The notes beneath the pieces are model-generated. The model was given only the letters and a program-made list of their open reading frames with translations. It had not been told where the DNA came from and made no database searches. A stretch of 64,000 bases of DNA from Promethearchaeota archaeon (GTDB taxonomy: Archaea; Asgardarchaeota; Lokiarchaeia; Sigyniarchaeales; SOKP01), in NCBI GenBank assembly GCA_048938895.1, contig JBHLLU010000018.1:1-64000 (forward strand). The letters are read 5' to 3'. The translations under genes and the position numbers were made by a program. Shown piece after piece: positions 3,619 to 14,115 of this stretch. Position 1 is the first letter of the stretch. The number at the start of each line of letters is the position of its first letter.

Positions 3619-4203
3619 ATGAGACCATCTAGAATTTTTAGATTATTAATTCGCATATTTATCTTATTACTAACTATATCTGTATCGATTGTTGCTTTTC
3701 TAGGTGGATTATCTGCTGTTATGATTCTATCAAATCCAGATAACTTTGGAATTGATACAGGTAACGCAGAATTCAATATCGATTTTAATAACTCTACTCT
3801 CAAAATTGAAAATATTAACTTTACTTTACCTTTTAACATTACTAATGCGGGATATTTCGATTTGGAAAATCTTCAACTAGATCTTCAATTAGGATTAAAT
3901 TATAGTCATATAGATGGAGGAGGTCCGGGAGTGAATGAAACTAGAATTGTCAAAATTCTTGATAGATCACAATATTTTGGTGATATTGCTAAAGGAATAA
4001 CAGGAAACTTTACTTTTTACGGAGATAATAGCAGTTTCATATATTCAAATTTTCCAGATCCACTCACTGAAATAGATTGGTTTAGGGGACCCCCACCATT
4101 AGAATTTTATGCCAATTTTACCATAAGCTTAGATTATTCTATAGGTATGCAATCTATATCTATTACAGCAATAAATGTCTTTGTTGGCGATTTTACACCT
4201 TAG
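3619..4203 (+). CDS. Membrane-anchored extracellular protein (N-terminal TM plus beta-rich, possibly LEA_2/Ig-like domain), many N-glycosylation sequons
   Basis: N-terminal hydrophobic helix, beta-strand pattern NFTLPFNITNAG, about 9 N-x-S/T sequons. Confidence 0.7.
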   Translation: MRPSRIFRLLIRIFILLLTISVSIVAFLGGLSAVMILSNPDNFGIDTGNAEFNIDFNNSTLKIENINFTLPFNITNAGYFDLENLQLDLQLGLNYSHIDGGGPGVNETRIVKILDRSQYFGDIAKGITGNFTFYGDNSSFIYSNFPDPLTEIDWFRGPPPLEFYANFTISLDYSIGMQSISITAINVFVGDFTP

Positions 4204-4215
4204 GAGGTTTTTAAA

Positions 4216-4689
4216 TTGGGCGCTGTTAAAAATATGGTAAAAGGTTTTGTTTTTACGGGTATTTATGTGGTATTTACAATTATTCTTCCATTATTATTAT
4301 TTACATTGATTTTTAGTATTGAAAATTTACCCTTAGAATGGGAACAGCAAGATCAAACAAATATAAAATTCTGGTTAGTTGCTTTTGGATTATTGGTAAG
4401 TGGATTGGCATTTTTTAAATATTCTAGCCCAAAACAATCTATAAGAAAAGCAGTGTTTGCGTTAATTCAAGTTATTGTAAATTGTTTGTATATCTGGAGT
4501 TATAGCTATTCTGGTGCTACTGAAATAACATTTATAATCTTTGATTTCGGTTTTTTTACTTTAGATCTAACACAGATGATTTTAATATACATGGGAATTT
4601 ATTTTCTGACTATTATTTTAAAGGTATATGATGTTATTGATTTTACATTAAATAGAGAGAAAATTCGACAAGACCGGATGAAAAAATAA
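4216..4689 (+). CDS. Hypothetical 4-TM membrane protein
   Basis: Four hydrophobic segments; GGAGG just upstream of the TTG start; operonic with neighbours. Confidence 0.75.
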   Translation: MGAVKNMVKGFVFTGIYVVFTIILPLLLFTLIFSIENLPLEWEQQDQTNIKFWLVAFGLLVSGLAFFKYSSPKQSIRKAVFALIQVIVNCLYIWSYSYSGATEITFIIFDFGFFTLDLTQMILIYMGIYFLTIILKVYDVIDFTLNREKIRQDRMKK

Positions 4690-4707
4690 TAGAGGTGGAA
4701 TATAAAA

Positions 4708-5091
4708 ATGGACTTTTTAGAAATATTAGCAGAAATAGTCGGTTCAATAATGACGTTTTTAAAACCAATTATATCCCCGATAGGTGCCTTTATAGTTGAT
4801 TTAACGGTTGCAGCTACGCAATTTTTCAAGGATAACCTTGGTTCGAGTCTTGTATTTTATATTGTAATCTGTGTCATACTAGTAACCTCTGCTATTATTG
4901 TTAATATTATTTGGCCAGGAGATAGACCCGGGACTATCTTCTCTAAAGGGGTAGGAAAACTTGATGATTTTGATGATAAAATCGATATTTCTGATGATGA
5001 TTTCATTGATGAAATAAAGAGATGTAAGGATTGTGGAAATCCTGTTGGTGATTCAGAAATCTGTCCTTTATGTGGAGCCCGCCAGATTTAA
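4708..5091 (+). CDS. Membrane protein with C-terminal zinc ribbon
   Basis: TM segment, acidic linker, CKDC...CPLC; GAGGTG upstream. Confidence 0.75.
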   Translation: MDFLEILAEIVGSIMTFLKPIISPIGAFIVDLTVAATQFFKDNLGSSLVFYIVICVILVTSAIIVNIIWPGDRPGTIFSKGVGKLDDFDDKIDISDDDFIDEIKRCKDCGNPVGDSEICPLCGARQI

Positions 5092-6676: not shown

Positions 6677-7426
6677 ATGAATTTCAATAATAATCTTGAA
6701 AGCTACAAGAATAAAAAAGATCTTGTTGAAGAACTTAATTTTTATAAATCAGCTATTCTTAAGAAAGTAAAAAGTGGAGATTATAATTCAGCATTGGTAA
6801 AGGTAAGATCCGCTCTAGTGTTGCTTGAAGAACATAAAAGAGATTTTAGACTAGAGAAAGAATTTATTGATTTCTATGAATTAAAAGAACAAGTAAAGAA
6901 AGAGTTATATTCTCATCGAATGAAATATGAACGTCGGTTTAATAATCTTTTAAGGGAAAAACTTAATGAATCAAACATTGAAAATTTTTCACGACTTTTA
7001 GCTATGCTTAAAGCTGAAGTTGATCAAAATTTAGATAAATATAATCTGGAAGATATTAGCATAAATATAACTAAGTATTTCAAATTCATAAAGAAGTTAT
7101 ATGAGATTCTTAGTTGCTATAAAGTACTGAATTATCATGATGCTTCTGGAAAGATATTTGATTTTGTTAAAGATATAAAAACAGAAAATTTTCCTAATTT
7201 AAAATTGCTCATCTCATTAATATATCAAAACTTATTAAAATATAAATTATCAGAATATTCAAAGGAATATGATAAACTCTCTCTCTCCTTTCTCTCTAAT
7301 AGATTAGCAATAAATGAGGGAAAATTAGCTGATTTTATAACAATTATTATGAAGCAACCCAAAAGCCCCATAAAAAGTTATCTTTTAGACACAGGTGAAA
7401 TTTACTTTAGAAAGCAAGGATTTTAA
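6677..7426 (+). CDS. Helical protein with C-terminal PCI-like winged-helix domain
   Basis: Helical N-terminal region; the C-terminus YSKEYDKLSLSFLSNRLAINEGKLADFITIIM...SYLLDTGEIYF follows the PCI pattern (YxxIsLxxLAxxLxL...idxxxgxVxF). Confidence 0.6.
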   Translation: MNFNNNLESYKNKKDLVEELNFYKSAILKKVKSGDYNSALVKVRSALVLLEEHKRDFRLEKEFIDFYELKEQVKKELYSHRMKYERRFNNLLREKLNESNIENFSRLLAMLKAEVDQNLDKYNLEDISINITKYFKFIKKLYEILSCYKVLNYHDASGKIFDFVKDIKTENFPNLKLLISLIYQNLLKYKLSEYSKEYDKLSLSFLSNRLAINEGKLADFITIIMKQPKSPIKSYLLDTGEIYFRKQGF

Positions 7427-7430
7427 ATTT

Positions 7431-8108
7431 TTATTCATCCTCATCTTCGACATCATCAGGTTTCTTTGGACAAGAGTTTAAATGTCTTCCGAGTCTTACA
7501 AATTCTCTTCCACAATATGGACATTTCTGTTTTTCTTCACTCTTATCATCAGAACTTTCTACTTTAGATGTAGACTTTTTCTTTTTTTTTTTATGTGTAG
7601 GCAAAATATCATCAACTGTAACATCATCAGGAGCAAATTCACAGTTTTGTACATGCGCTGGAAGGTCATCAAACAATTCACCGCAGAATGGGCATTCTAC
7701 TTCAGCAAATTCCTCTGAATCCTCAAGATCCTCTTTACCCGCTTTTCTTTTTTCGAATTTTAATGGAACCTCATCATCTTCTTCCTCAAATTCGTCGATT
7801 GATAAATCGATTTCCTCATCAGTTTTAATGGCAGCAAGTTCAAATTCTTCCAATTTTATTTGTTTCTCTCTAATTTTTTGTTCCGCTTTGTTTTTGCTCT
7901 CTTCATATACGTCTGAAAATCTTCGGTTATTTTTCACTGGATCATAAATGTTACAAACCTGACATACATATGCTCGAGTCCCTAAAACTAAATTTCTTGG
8001 AGGACAGTATGCTAATGATTGCAAGCTATTCCCAATATCACCTTTTGGTTCAAGATATTTACAAACTATTTTTCTGGAATATTTTATTTTCTGTTTTCGT
8101 CGAGGGAT
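7431..8108 (-). CDS. Zinc-finger protein with two C2HC (UBZ-like) fingers, acidic linker and poly-Lys tract
   Basis: CPFC..x8..HVQNC and CPYC..x8..HLNSC. The frame stays open 28 codons upstream of the TTG at 8024, to ATC at 8108 preceded by GGTGA, which adds a further Cys to an N-terminal C..C..CxxC cluster. The start position is inferred. Confidence 0.7.
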   Translation of the reverse strand: MPRRKQKIKYSRKIVCKYLEPKGDIGNSLQSLAYCPPRNLVLGTRAYVCQVCNIYDPVKNNRRFSDVYEESKNKAEQKIREKQIKLEEFELAAIKTDEEIDLSIDEFEEEDDEVPLKFEKRKAGKEDLEDSEEFAEVECPFCGELFDDLPAHVQNCEFAPDDVTVDDILPTHKKKKKKSTSKVESSDDKSEEKQKCPYCGREFVRLGRHLNSCPKKPDDVEDEDE

Positions 8109-8184
8109 TTTTCCATCACCAAAAAGAAGTAGTTAAGATAGTGTTTCTTAAAATATATTTTTTTTGAATTTATTAGTAAAATCA

Positions 8185-9741
8185 TTAAAAATTATAGCTA
8201 ATGCTTTTGAGATCATTAATTAATTTCTTTTTAATCCCAACATTATCGAGGCTGGGTAATAATTCTTCGACTATATCTCTTAATTCAACAATTTTTTGTA
8301 TAAGTAAATCTGGTTTATTCCAAAAAGATGTCCGTAAAGGATGCATTCTTGCAATTGCCTTATTATAATTTTCAATAGCAGCTCGATAAAATAAACAGGC
8401 ATTTTCCAATTTGTTTAACCTTGTTTGATAAATATTACCAATCTTATTAAAACACATTCCTGCTCCTGCATAATCACCTTCATTTTCAAAATCAACTGCT
8501 GCATCTTGAATTTTAATCAAGCCTTCCTCCAAAACATCATTACTCCCCTTCTTTAATAAAATATATCCTAATATATAATTTGAAACACCTTTATAAAATA
8601 GATTTTTATGTTTTTTTGCAATTTTGAATAAATCTTCACCAAATTCTCCTGCGAATACTAAATGATCATTAGCAATACATTTTTGGGATACAGTTCTTAA
8701 TAAATCCATGACTTTTTCTAAATTCTTTAATTCTTTGTAATGATTGATCCCCTGTCGGAATTTTTCTATACCACCAAAAGCATCCTTATTATTGAAAGCT
8801 TGATTTCCCTCGTATATCAATCTTTCAGCAAGTTCCTTTTTTGTTCTATCCTTTTGTCTTTGTTCTTCTTTTTGTGCTATGTCATCAACTTTGAAGTTTA
8901 TATCTTCTTCCATGGGGATTTCGGTTAAGAGGTTATCATTAGAAGCACTGCCGATGTTAAAGTCAAAAGGTGAAAGGTTTTCTGCTTTTATTTGGTTTTC
9001 CCCATAGGCTGCTTGTAAAGGCTTTCCTTCAGAAACGAGTGCCGATAATTCTGATAGTACATTAGCAAAGAAATATTTGTTCAATCCATCAACAATATAA
9101 TCTACTTTATGATAATTATTACTATATTCAGGAGCGTTTATATCCATAGTAGTATCTGTAATTCTATAGATTTCAAAACCAGTGTCATATTTTGTGATTA
9201 TAAATTCTGAATTTTCTTGTCTTTCCTGTTTTTTCTTTCCTAATAACGTATGATCAAACACTAAACCTATTCCATCTTCATGGGTTTGAAAAAAAACTTG
9301 ATTTCTAAGATCTATATCTGAAAAAAAAAGCCCTAAACCGGGATGGGAATGAAACCAACCTACAATGTAAAGATTTTCTCCTTGCGAATCTAACTTATCT
9401 TGTATTTCAGCTATGAATACATAATGCCTATTATCTAAGATAACATCTGTATCATGCCCAAATGTTAAAGCCTCTGCCCCTACTACATGAACAAAATCAT
9501 CATCAGTAAAACCTATTAAAACACCATAAATTTCTTTCCAATTCTCAGGTGGAATTGATCTGTTAGAATATCTACTTGCATATAGAATAATAGTTTTATA
9601 TGCCTTAGCAGAAAGTATTACAGGCTTACCTGGCATTCGCTTTTGTTCTTCTTCTGCTGGATTGATCTCTTCTTCTTCGTTTTCATATTTTTCTTCTTTT
9701 TCTTCATCGTTTTCTTTTGGATTTTTAATTTCTTCCGACAT
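8185..9741 (-). CDS. MPN+/JAMM metalloprotease (Rpn11/CSN5-like) fused to C-terminal TPR/alpha-SNAP-like helical repeats
   Basis: KEIYGVLIG (catalytic Glu) and VGWFHSHPGLGLFFSDID (intact HxH-x7-S-x2-D); TPR-like C-terminal half. Confidence 0.88.
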   Translation of the reverse strand: MSEEIKNPKENDEEKEEKYENEEEEINPAEEEQKRMPGKPVILSAKAYKTIILYASRYSNRSIPPENWKEIYGVLIGFTDDDFVHVVGAEALTFGHDTDVILDNRHYVFIAEIQDKLDSQGENLYIVGWFHSHPGLGLFFSDIDLRNQVFFQTHEDGIGLVFDHTLLGKKKQERQENSEFIITKYDTGFEIYRITDTTMDINAPEYSNNYHKVDYIVDGLNKYFFANVLSELSALVSEGKPLQAAYGENQIKAENLSPFDFNIGSASNDNLLTEIPMEEDINFKVDDIAQKEEQRQKDRTKKELAERLIYEGNQAFNNKDAFGGIEKFRQGINHYKELKNLEKVMDLLRTVSQKCIANDHLVFAGEFGEDLFKIAKKHKNLFYKGVSNYILGYILLKKGSNDVLEEGLIKIQDAAVDFENEGDYAGAGMCFNKIGNIYQTRLNKLENACLFYRAAIENYNKAIARMHPLRTSFWNKPDLLIQKIVELRDIVEELLPSLDNVGIKKKLINDLKSISYNF

Positions 9742-12690: not shown

Positions 12691-14115
12691 TTAAGAGAAA
12701 ACCTGTCTCCTCCTTCTTTCAATCCATGATATCTTTCCAGATTTACTCAATAGAAATATTTCAAATTCATTATTTTTCCAAATTATAATCCAAGAAGACT
12801 TTGCAAAAAAATTTATTGGATTCTTAATTAATTTCAAATCTTTAAGTACAGTCTGAGATTTAAAAAATTCAGGCATGAATTTGATATCTATTAAATCGGT
12901 TTGGTTTTTACCAATTGAGTTCTTTTGTGATTTGTAACTGTAGAAGAAGTCGAAAGGTGTGTTTGACAAATTATTATTTTCAACGTTAAAAAATTCAATG
13001 TTATTTAAATTCTCTATATTTTCTTTAATTGAAATTCTATTGAATCCAAGATACAAATGCTCTAATTGATTTAATATTTTTAATTGTTTAATTGCTGTTA
13101 TTTTATTGTTCCGAAGATCTAAAAATTTTAATTTTTTTAGGTGATCTAGCCCATTAATTTCAGAAATTTGATTATGACTTAGATCCAAAAATTCTAGATT
13201 AGTGAGATTATCAAGTCCTTTAATTTTAACTATTCTATTATTACTTAAATCTAATCTTTTTAAATTTTTAAGACTGTCCAGCCCTTTAATTTCTTTAATT
13301 TCGTTATTCCGCAGATTTAAAATTTCTAATTTTGATAGGTGATCTAAATTTTGTATTTCAGTAAGGCGATTATCATAAATCATCAGTGATTTCAAATTAG
13401 AAAGATTTTTAATTCCTTTAATCTCATGAATTTCATTATTATTAAGGTATAAGTATTCTAGATTTCTTAGATTTTCTAATCCTTTAATTTCTCTAATTTT
13501 ATTCCATTGAAGTTGTAAAGAATTTAGATTATTTAATTTATCCAAACCCTCTATTTCTGTTATTCTGTTAAAGTTTAAATTAAGTTTCCTTAAATTTGTT
13601 AAATTTTTCAAACCTTTAATTTTTAATATATTATCAATACTTCTACTGCTTAAATTAATAATTTGATAAACTCCAAAAGGAAAAAACAGCTTACCCTCAA
13701 AATTTATATATTCGATGGACTTCAATAATGATTTTAATTCAGGATTACCGGATTTTTCCAATGCTTTTATTATTAAAATATTACAAGATTCTGATTTTTC
13801 ATGTTTTAAAGCCCATTTAATGGGTTTTATTGCTTGCTCAGGGAAGTTTTTAATAATAATAGAGGCTGCGTTTCCTCTTACTAGTTCATTAAAATCAGAA
13901 ATTAACAGATTCTCAAGGAAGAAGTATATATTTTGGTCTTTAGAACCAATCAAACCTAAGAATTTAACACTCGAAATCCTACTATGAATATTTTTTTCAA
14001 TAGGATTTTCAATAACAGAAATTAATAGATCTGAAGCTTCACTTTTATCCAAATTCTTTTGTTTATAATTTTCATAAATTTCTTTTGGTGATATGGCTGA
14101 CATTCTATAGCTCAA
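12691..14115 (-). CDS. HEAT-like N-terminus plus SDS22-class leucine-rich repeat protein
   Basis: About 10 tandem 22-aa repeats LxxLxxLxLxxNxIxxIxGL; HEAT/PBS-like helices at the N-terminus. Confidence 0.9.
   Translation of the reverse strand: MSYRMSAISPKEIYENYKQKNLDKSEASDLLISVIENPIEKNIHSRISSVKFLGLIGSKDQNIYFFLENLLISDFNELVRGNAASIIIKNFPEQAIKPIKWALKHEKSESCNILIIKALEKSGNPELKSLLKSIEYINFEGKLFFPFGVYQIINLSSRSIDNILKIKGLKNLTNLRKLNLNFNRITEIEGLDKLNNLNSLQLQWNKIREIKGLENLRNLEYLYLNNNEIHEIKGIKNLSNLKSLMIYDNRLTEIQNLDHLSKLEILNLRNNEIKEIKGLDSLKNLKRLDLSNNRIVKIKGLDNLTNLEFLDLSHNQISEINGLDHLKKLKFLDLRNNKITAIKQLKILNQLEHLYLGFNRISIKENIENLNNIEFFNVENNNLSNTPFDFFYSYKSQKNSIGKNQTDLIDIKFMPEFFKSQTVLKDLKLIKNPINFFAKSSWIIIWKNNEFEIFLLSKSGKISWIERRRRQVFS
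12965..13625 (-). repeat. Degenerate 66-bp coding tandem repeat (LRR units)
   Basis: 22-aa periodicity in the translation, with recurring cctttaat/ttctagatt words; boundaries approximate. Confidence 0.75.

Follow-up and report, generated by a model that had tools for sequence, protein, structure and literature searches.

The DNA stretch analyzed here (hereafter the window) comprises positions 1–64000 of contig C123 of an Asgard genome (4.65 Mb, 174 contigs). It holds three neighboring genes, which encode a PCI-fold protein of 249 amino acids (6677..7426, plus strand), a zinc-finger protein (called as 7431..8024, minus strand), and a JAMM-type protein of 518 amino acids carrying TPR-like helices, termed JAMM-TPR in the following (8185..9741, minus strand). 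The three open reading frames (ORFs) were called exactly where a first-pass annotation of this DNA had reported them; that annotation had read the cluster as a candidate three-part module resembling the proteasome lid or the COP9 signalosome (CSN). The genes of the PCI-fold protein and the zinc-finger protein converge, and 4 bp separate their stop codons (bases 7427–7430), as also described before. In homolog searches, in which 1115 PCI-fold, 7999 JAMM-TPR, and 601 zinc-finger candidates were scored, 148, 373, and 357 homologous clusters, respectively, were obtained at E ≤1e-3. With more than 100 homologous clusters each, all three are real genes and not chance ORFs. Identity to the query was 56% to 100% among the matches listed (120 per protein), and the public homologs of the three proteins carry the labels Promethearchaeota or Lokiarchaeia. 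Each of the three genes is single in the genome. A scan for consensus promoters and terminators, which relies on a bacterial model, gave 14 promoter-like sites (19.9 expected) and no terminators. A look-up of RNA runs listed none that covers the locus. The literature searched contains no description of the cluster; the supplementary tables of PMC10936438 and the Asgard orthologous-group catalogues, which may list the families, were outside that search.

JAMM-TPR belongs to the MPN+ family, of which the TPR fusion represents a variant. The Pfam profile JAB matched residues 39–153 with 49.2 bits (cut-off 22.5, E 5.6e-13). According to this match, the strands and helices of the AlphaFold2 (AF2) model (41–237), and Foldseek, the MPN domain covers residues 39–237 (9031..9627, minus strand), so that a profile score above the curated cut-off coincides with an MPN fold. 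The JAMM motif was confirmed to be intact: VGWFHSHPGLGLFFSDID occupies residues 127–144, and the metal-binding part H131-x-H133...S141..D144 is encoded at 9310..9351 (minus strand). Together with the catalytic E70 (codon 9532-9534, minus strand), the protein displays the complete MPN+ signature E...H-x-H-x7-S-x2-D in alignment with the Rpn11 motif. E70, H131, H133, S141, and D144 are invariant across 35 aligned JAMM-TPR orthologs. Among proteins of solved structure, the closest in sequence are yeast Rpn11 (2.9e-11), the Rpn11 homolog of Caldiarchaeum, PSMD14, CSN5, and BRCC36. The AF2 model (mean pLDDT 74.5) led to 222 Foldseek matches in the PDB at E ≤1e-3, with Rpn11 in the first place (1.4e-9). 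In structural alignments of the MPN domain, Rpn11 (4o8x_B) reached Z 19.6 (root-mean-square deviation (rmsd) 3.5, 162 residues aligned), followed by CsRpn11 (18.6) and CSN5 (17.9). Yeast Rpn11 is therefore the best PDB match both by sequence and by fold.

The MPN domain is followed by a linker (residues 237–291) that is disordered in the model (pLDDT <50) and by a C-terminal domain (residues 290–513; 8203..8874, minus strand) consisting of ten helices and no strands, with pLDDT values mostly between 86 and 96. In the model and its fold matches, this domain forms the stacked helix-turn-helix solenoid typical of TPR proteins. The top match was TSK/BRU1 (7t7t_B, Z 17.4, rmsd 5.7, 185 residues aligned); LGN (Z 16.7), PlcR (15.2), Rap (13.4), and KLC1 (13.0) were found as well. 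No Pfam TPR family was listed for JAMM-TPR at E ≤1, and the families Rgg_C and SNAP matched the tail weakly. A particular likeness to alpha-SNAP was considered and discarded as generic, given that the Pfam SNAP match reached only E 0.042 and Sec17 (Z 13.5) appeared amid many TPR proteins. Because the C-terminal domain lacks a winged helix, JAMM-TPR is not itself a PCI protein. A comparison of the family profiles of the PCI-fold protein and JAMM-TPR (probability 4.6%) did not indicate a kinship of the TPR tail with the PCI-fold protein. On the evidence of profile, orthologs, and fold matches, the earlier description of an intact Rpn11/CSN5-type MPN+ domain joined to TPR repeats holds.

JAMM-TPR shares the MPN+ fold with Rpn11/PSMD14, CSN5, and the Rpn11 homolog CsRpn11 from Candidatus Caldiarchaeum subterraneum (PDB 6fju, 6fjv, 6fnn; PMC6043591). 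It also has the full E...HxH...S..D metal site of these proteins and is a putative metalloprotease. Unlike them, it is fused via a disordered linker of roughly 55 residues to a TPR domain. In contrast to the setting of CsRpn11, the JAMM-TPR gene is located outside a Ub-E1-E2 operon, whereas a separate JAB gene of the host is part of one (see below). Unlike Rpn11, JAMM-TPR is not accompanied by an Rpn8-like MPN− gene.

The zinc-finger gene extends beyond the called ORF, which starts with TTG at 8024 and encodes 197 amino acids. The reading frame is open to position 8132 (stop 8133-8135), and the alignment with homologs of 225 to 235 amino acids supports a conserved coding region of about 226 amino acids (7431..8111, minus strand). 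Approximately 29 additional N-terminal residues (IPRRKQKIKYSRK...C...) are conserved among these homologs, which begin with M..(I)PRRKQKIKYSRK. The start may possibly be a near-cognate codon, involve a ribosomal slip, or lie at the TTG at 8024, yielding a shorter protein. Several observations were made in this region. Shifted by a single base from the frame, an ATG and a GTG immediately precede the conserved N-terminus, with five consecutive A in between. Where other genomes encode the Met of MPRRK, the window has the Ile codon of IPRRK (ATC), which reads ATA in L033, the nearest relative. Contigs from two other samples cover this spot and show no insertion or deletion.

The zinc-finger protein is mostly disordered and highly charged. 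Its N-terminal Cys module is followed by an acidic stretch (IDLSIDEFEEEE) and then by finger 1, which a poly-lysine linker connects to finger 2. Its best-conserved part is the N-terminal Cys module (C17...C34-x-C36...C50-x2-C53 in the numbering of alignment A3; 7953..8063, minus strand), which had been overlooked in the first-pass annotation. In the alignment of 22 sequences, the columns Q31, L33, C36, R39, L41, L43, G44, A47, V49, C50, V52, and C53 of this module are invariant, and a Pfam scan of the 22 members gave no match to it. Both predicted fingers are present, finger 1 (CPFCGELFDDLPAHVQNC) at 7641..7694 and finger 2 (CPYCGREFVRLGRHLNSC) at 7470..7523 (both minus strand). The spacing formerly assigned to them (CxxC-x8-H-x3-C) was incorrect, since sequence and alignment show C-x2-C-x9-H-x3-C in either case. 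C197, C200, H210, and C214 of finger 2 are invariant among the 22 sequences; finger 1 is absent from both homologs of family f2 (L031 and L032).

Profile searches do not support the former designation of the fingers as UBZ-like. None of the 22 family members matched any UBZ family at E ≤0.01; matches were obtained to generic zinc-ribbon profiles, to zf-Di19, and to zf-C2HC_2, which remained below its cut-off (24.3 bits on finger 2, cut-off 27). The precomputed assignment PF28519.1, named MTNAP1_ZnF in the Atlas, was present in 112 among the 120 homologs listed, and the fingers fall in this family. The CCHC ligand order with a terminal H-x3-C is shared with UBZ4-type fingers, the ubiquitin-binding fingers of Rad18, Pol kappa, and FAAP20; the fingers described here differ from these in the spacer of nine residues and in the missing UBZ profile match. 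The identical spacing, Cys-X2-Cys-X9-His-X3-Cys, is reported for the N-terminal finger of human MTNAP1 (C17orf80), which is not known to have a ligand (PMC10445727). The vertebrate protein MTNAP1 belongs to the mitochondrial nucleoid and combines a single finger with a C-terminus similar to ATP synthase f, whereas the archaeal protein has two fingers in a charged disordered chain and the additional N-terminal Cys module.

The 249-amino acid protein is PCI-like by its fold but not by its sequence profile. The AF2 model (pLDDT 93, pTM 0.81) comprises seven helices followed by a strand-helix-helix-strand-strand arrangement, the winged helix being located at residues ~173–244. The first ~50 PDB matches in Foldseek were all PCI subunits (CSN1/2/3/4, PSMD3/6/11/12, eIF3a/c), with a best E of 6e-4 and TM values of merely 0.25–0.41. 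After re-alignment of this list, Rpn6 (5mpb_Q) reached Z 10.7 (rmsd 4.9, 168 residues aligned, model residues 76–249), and many lid, CSN, eIF3c, and TREX-2 entries were found at Z 8.3–10. In the Atlas, PCI clusters account for nine of the ten best look-alikes that carry a name (scores 0.80–0.83, to be taken as a lead only), and the structure search there placed the PSMD11 and CSN2 models at TM 0.51. On profile positions 176–246, the family profile weakly matched the winged helix of eIF3c at E 0.036–0.06, that of PSMD3 at 0.74, and that of a plant lid subunit at 1.2. One homolog (P0042) is named 'PCI domain-containing p...' in UniRef. A fold search independent of Foldseek yielded PCI entries at Z 8.0–8.2, not above unrelated helical proteins; its leading matches (three-helix, TPR, and MIT proteins, Z about 9.5) covered residues 6–80. 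Because this search left the PCI entries among generic helical ones, the assignment needs several lines of moderate strength; on such independent lines, a PCI-type fold is accepted, which agrees with the helices and the C-terminal PCI-like winged helix described earlier.

Pfam PCI was not matched at E ≤1 in the search with the 249-amino acid protein, and in the genome scan it reached 13.5 bits (E 0.31, cut-off 22) at window positions 7190–7324. A PDB sequence search with the single protein gave only chance-level matches to ParD and IscB (E 0.7). An identity as ParD antitoxin was rejected, because the match (17.5 bits, cut-off 21) lies on a region modeled as two helices without a strand. Many orthologs are publicly named 'type II toxin-antitoxin system ParD family antitoxin'; for the same reasons, this name is probably a misannotation spread by copying. 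The PCI subunits of the lid, the CSN, and eIF3 (Rpn6/PSMD11, Rpn5, CSN1, CSN2, CSN4, eIF3a/c) have the same order of helical repeat and winged helix. However, with 249 compared to 350–500 amino acids, the archaeal protein is much shorter, and it differs in scoring below the Pfam cut-off, in being encoded by a single-copy gene, in belonging to a tiny family, and in the missing terminal helix. In the model, no helix follows the winged helix; the strand 241–244 is the last element and residue 249 the end of the protein. According to PMC6043591, archaea are not known to have PCI complexes; winged helices of a PCI-like type have been mentioned for other archaeal proteins (PMC10936438).

The gene order was compared in 40 loci centered on JAMM-TPR, which represent nine genera in family f1 and a single one in family f2. 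The selection was not random; 20 loci came from genera or genomes without a PCI-fold match and 20 from genomes with one. The zinc-finger gene is located directly downstream of the JAMM-TPR gene on the same strand in 39 of the loci, while a nitroreductase-like gene separates the two in the 40th. In most f1 loci, JAMM-TPR, zinc-finger, and a radical-SAM gene of 305–310 amino acids are arranged on one strand, followed by the convergent PCI-fold gene, which is sometimes preceded by an additional membrane-protein gene. The radical-SAM protein (e.g., L034:7494-8417, ~307 amino acids) matches Pfam Radical_SAM (4.2e-16) and contains CxxxCxxC; no specific NCBIfam was matched. The PCI-fold gene was retained in 24 of the 40 loci, compared to 29 for a CoA-transferase gene and 25 to 27 for three small membrane-protein genes. 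It is thus linked no more tightly than unrelated neighbors. Since the gene order of the whole block is frozen, proximity of the PCI-fold gene does not establish a partnership with the protease. Three small genes of this block are located at window positions 3619–5091 (plus strand). Two of them encode membrane-like proteins, the third a protein with a terminal CxxC...CxxC ribbon, and none is in Pfam. This set moves with the block across genera, including those free of the PCI-fold gene.

The three genes differ in their distribution. With a single-protein query, the PCI-fold gene was detected in f1 only, namely in 50 of the 301 genomes that were sampled over the whole phylum: besides the window genome, 49 of 68 f1 genomes and none of 232 genomes from the other 29 families were positive. 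Of 1.84 billion cluster representatives searched, just 35 matched at E ≤1e-3. In a profile search of 151 genomes of the class, orthologs were identified in the genera g1 (47/49), g3 (5/5), g4 (34/40 at E ≤0.01, a few of the matches being contig-end fragments only), g8, g9, and g71. In g2, g5, and g7, the profile reached only the winged helix of ~790-amino acid proteins, and this weakly (E 1e-5 to 1e-2); in g6, none of eight genomes was matched. JAMM-TPR, when used as a query, matched all 68 sampled f1 genomes (66 at ortholog level), two of seven f2 genomes (E about 1e-107), and one f32 locus. The zinc-finger family was present in 120 of 126 f1, 12 of 13 f2, three of three f31 genomes, and the single f32 genome, but in none of seven genomes from the other families of the class. 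The PCI-fold gene is therefore young and limited to some genera of one Lokiarchaeial family.

A Pfam scan of the genome confirmed that the window is devoid of matches to ubiquitin, E1, or E2. The genome as a whole contains five ubiquitin-family, four E2, and five ThiF matches over the Pfam cut-offs as well as seven JAB genes. On contig C126, a JAB gene encoding 278 amino acids belongs to an operon with the order JAB-E2-E1-Ub, and a second set (JAB-E1-E2) is located on contig C15. An orphan ubiquitin-family gene (84 amino acids, C123:64337-64594, minus strand) lies 337 bp beyond the window end. Its product ends with ...GG-A, so that C-terminal processing would be needed. A ThiF/E1-like gene follows ~7 kb past it (C123:71402-72100). 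Because the host holds seven JAB genes and ubiquitin operons elsewhere, JAMM-TPR is one of several specialized paralogs. None of the six other JAB genes carries a TPR tail, and none of the six is located at the locus described here. Three JAB-domain genes (333, 523, and 457 amino acids) were found side by side at C88:81466-86320 and form a second, different MPN paralog cluster. An 806-amino acid protein (C85:61037-63454, plus strand) has three or four winged-helix repeats over the Pfam PCI cut-off, and its look-alike cluster in the Atlas (788 amino acids, Promethearchaeota) lists the families E3_UFM1_ligase, DDRGK, and PCI. The protein may be a UFL1/DDRGK1-like scaffold in Lokiarchaeia. Two large leucine-rich-repeat proteins are encoded on contig C123, at window positions 12691–14115 (minus strand) and at C123:66327-67931.

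Taken together, we consider it rather probable that the functional unit conserved is the pair of JAMM-TPR and zinc-finger genes, to which the PCI-fold gene is an optional neighbor, and not the trio; the evidence favors an ordinary, lineage-specific pair of the deubiquitinase type. Soluble JAMM-TPR would most likely cut the isopeptide or C-terminal peptide bond after a ubiquitin-like protein of the host, and its choice of substrate would probably be set by its own TPR arm. The adjacency of the two genes suggests that the zinc-finger protein most likely docks on this arm, either as adaptor or as substrate; the acidic motif and the poly-lysine linker would be candidate contact and acceptor sites. 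As to the history of the locus, the pairing of the zinc-finger gene with the small radical-SAM gene is likely the oldest, with the protease joining later and the PCI-fold gene thereafter in part of f1. The radical-SAM gene is gone from the locus in the window genome and in the nearest relative (G243), which has the same gene order, and its loss would have left the PCI-fold gene abutting the zinc-finger gene at a distance of 4 bp.

Several points weigh against this interpretation. The adjacency of the JAMM-TPR and zinc-finger genes is partly a matter of kinship, because the genomes all belong to one family. Upstream of the TTG at 8024, no ATG, GTG, or TTG is available in frame before the stop at 8133-8135. 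The pairing with the radical-SAM gene suggests that the primary job of the zinc-finger protein may be unrelated to ubiquitin-like tags. Finally, where it is present, the PCI-fold gene is tightly placed, and a functional tie is therefore possible: a match to the PCI-fold protein over nearly its full length was obtained in 82 genomes, and in 74 of them its gene is no more than 2.4 kb away from the zinc-finger gene, always convergent on the opposite strand. The gap amounts to 0.9–1.2 kb in 59 of these genomes, to at most 300 bp in 11 (window included), and to 2.0–2.4 kb in four. Of the remaining genomes, six have the two genes on separate contigs, and two gave no zinc-finger entry. In two of these six, G343 and G336, the genes are unlinked, each deep within a large contig.

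The PCI-fold protein might also be independent of the protease, acting as a nucleic acid-binding or regulatory winged-helix protein or as the last member of the upstream gene set at 3619–5091, an alternative that we regard as rather unlikely. Nucleic acid binding is common among winged helices, including those of PCI proteins. The PCI-fold gene has the same orientation as ORF3619, ORF4216, and ORF4708, and in most loci (e.g., L034, L036, and L037) it comes directly after them. However, these three genes persist in g2, g5, and g6, where the PCI-fold gene is missing, and gaps of 0.3–0.8 kb, and in the window also an acyl-CoA dehydrogenase gene, separate it from the upstream set. In addition, DNA-binding families were not matched by the protein apart from the weak hit to ParD, a ribbon-helix-helix family, on the strandless two-helix region mentioned above.

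It is unlikely that the zinc-finger protein serves the radical-SAM enzyme instead, as its substrate or as a subunit targeting it to nucleic acids or proteins, with JAMM-TPR merely inserted upstream, so that its adjacency to the zinc-finger gene would be a matter of operon history and not of direct interaction between their products. This would account for the order-wide occurrence of the zinc-finger family, which JAMM-TPR orthologs do not share, and for the common strand of the three genes in most f1 loci. Among six distant loci centered on the zinc-finger gene, five contain a radical-SAM ortholog (44–48% identity; divergent at about 0.25 kb in two and directly upstream in one), compared to one with JAMM-TPR and none with the PCI-fold gene. 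On the other hand, the window genome has no radical-SAM ortholog at the locus, its best match (44% identity) being encoded on another contig, and G243 also lacks the radical-SAM slot. Both genomes keep JAMM-TPR beside the zinc-finger gene, an adjacency found in all but one of the 40 loci.

The three-part lid- or COP9-like module of the first-pass annotation is not supported by the comparison. PCI complexes are recognized by several PCI subunits in a horseshoe, an MPN+/MPN− heterodimer, and a bundle of C-terminal helices; here, a single PCI-fold gene without an adjoining MPN− partner was found, no helix past the winged helix is available for a bundle, and the C-terminus of JAMM-TPR is the TPR domain in the models. 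Predictions of a complex of three chains (JAMM-TPR 37–518, zinc-finger, and PCI-fold protein) scored 0.51, 0.35, and 0.00 in different runs; the control, in which chain 1 had been replaced, reached 0.56, so that these predictions speak neither for nor against the module. A minimal MPN-PCI particle, in which the PCI-fold protein is the scaffold, the fingers read the tag, and JAMM-TPR cuts, as a lineage-specific precursor of or parallel to the lid, the CSN, or eIF3, is very unlikely: both folds are correct, the PCI-fold gene is close by in most genomes that have it, and a known role does not compete, given the statement on archaeal PCI complexes cited above, but JAMM-TPR and the zinc-finger gene are kept in g2, g5, g6, g7, f2, and f32, where no PCI-fold ortholog was found, the latter is unlinked in G343 and G336, always on the opposite strand, usually behind an intervening radical-SAM gene, and retained no better than its neighbors, and the fingers match no UBZ family. 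It is likewise highly doubtful that, in genera with the PCI-fold gene, its product docks on the JAMM-TPR/zinc-finger pair, perhaps via the zinc-finger protein.

Among the hallmarks of the machines for protein turnover in eukaryotes are Rpn11, CSN5, and their PCI scaffolds. The archaea closest to eukaryotes already own two of the pieces, a TPR-bearing protease similar to Rpn11 and a small PCI-fold protein. The former comes with a built-in, putative docking arm and a fixed zinc-finger partner gene, and the latter is encoded close by, in some genera only. This raises the question of whether the MPN and PCI pieces interact or coexisted for a long time before they were joined. If the PCI-fold protein does dock, the result would be an MPN-PCI particle of two or three subunits and the first PCI complex of an archaeon, which would represent either a living model of the stage that preceded the lid or an independent reinvention.

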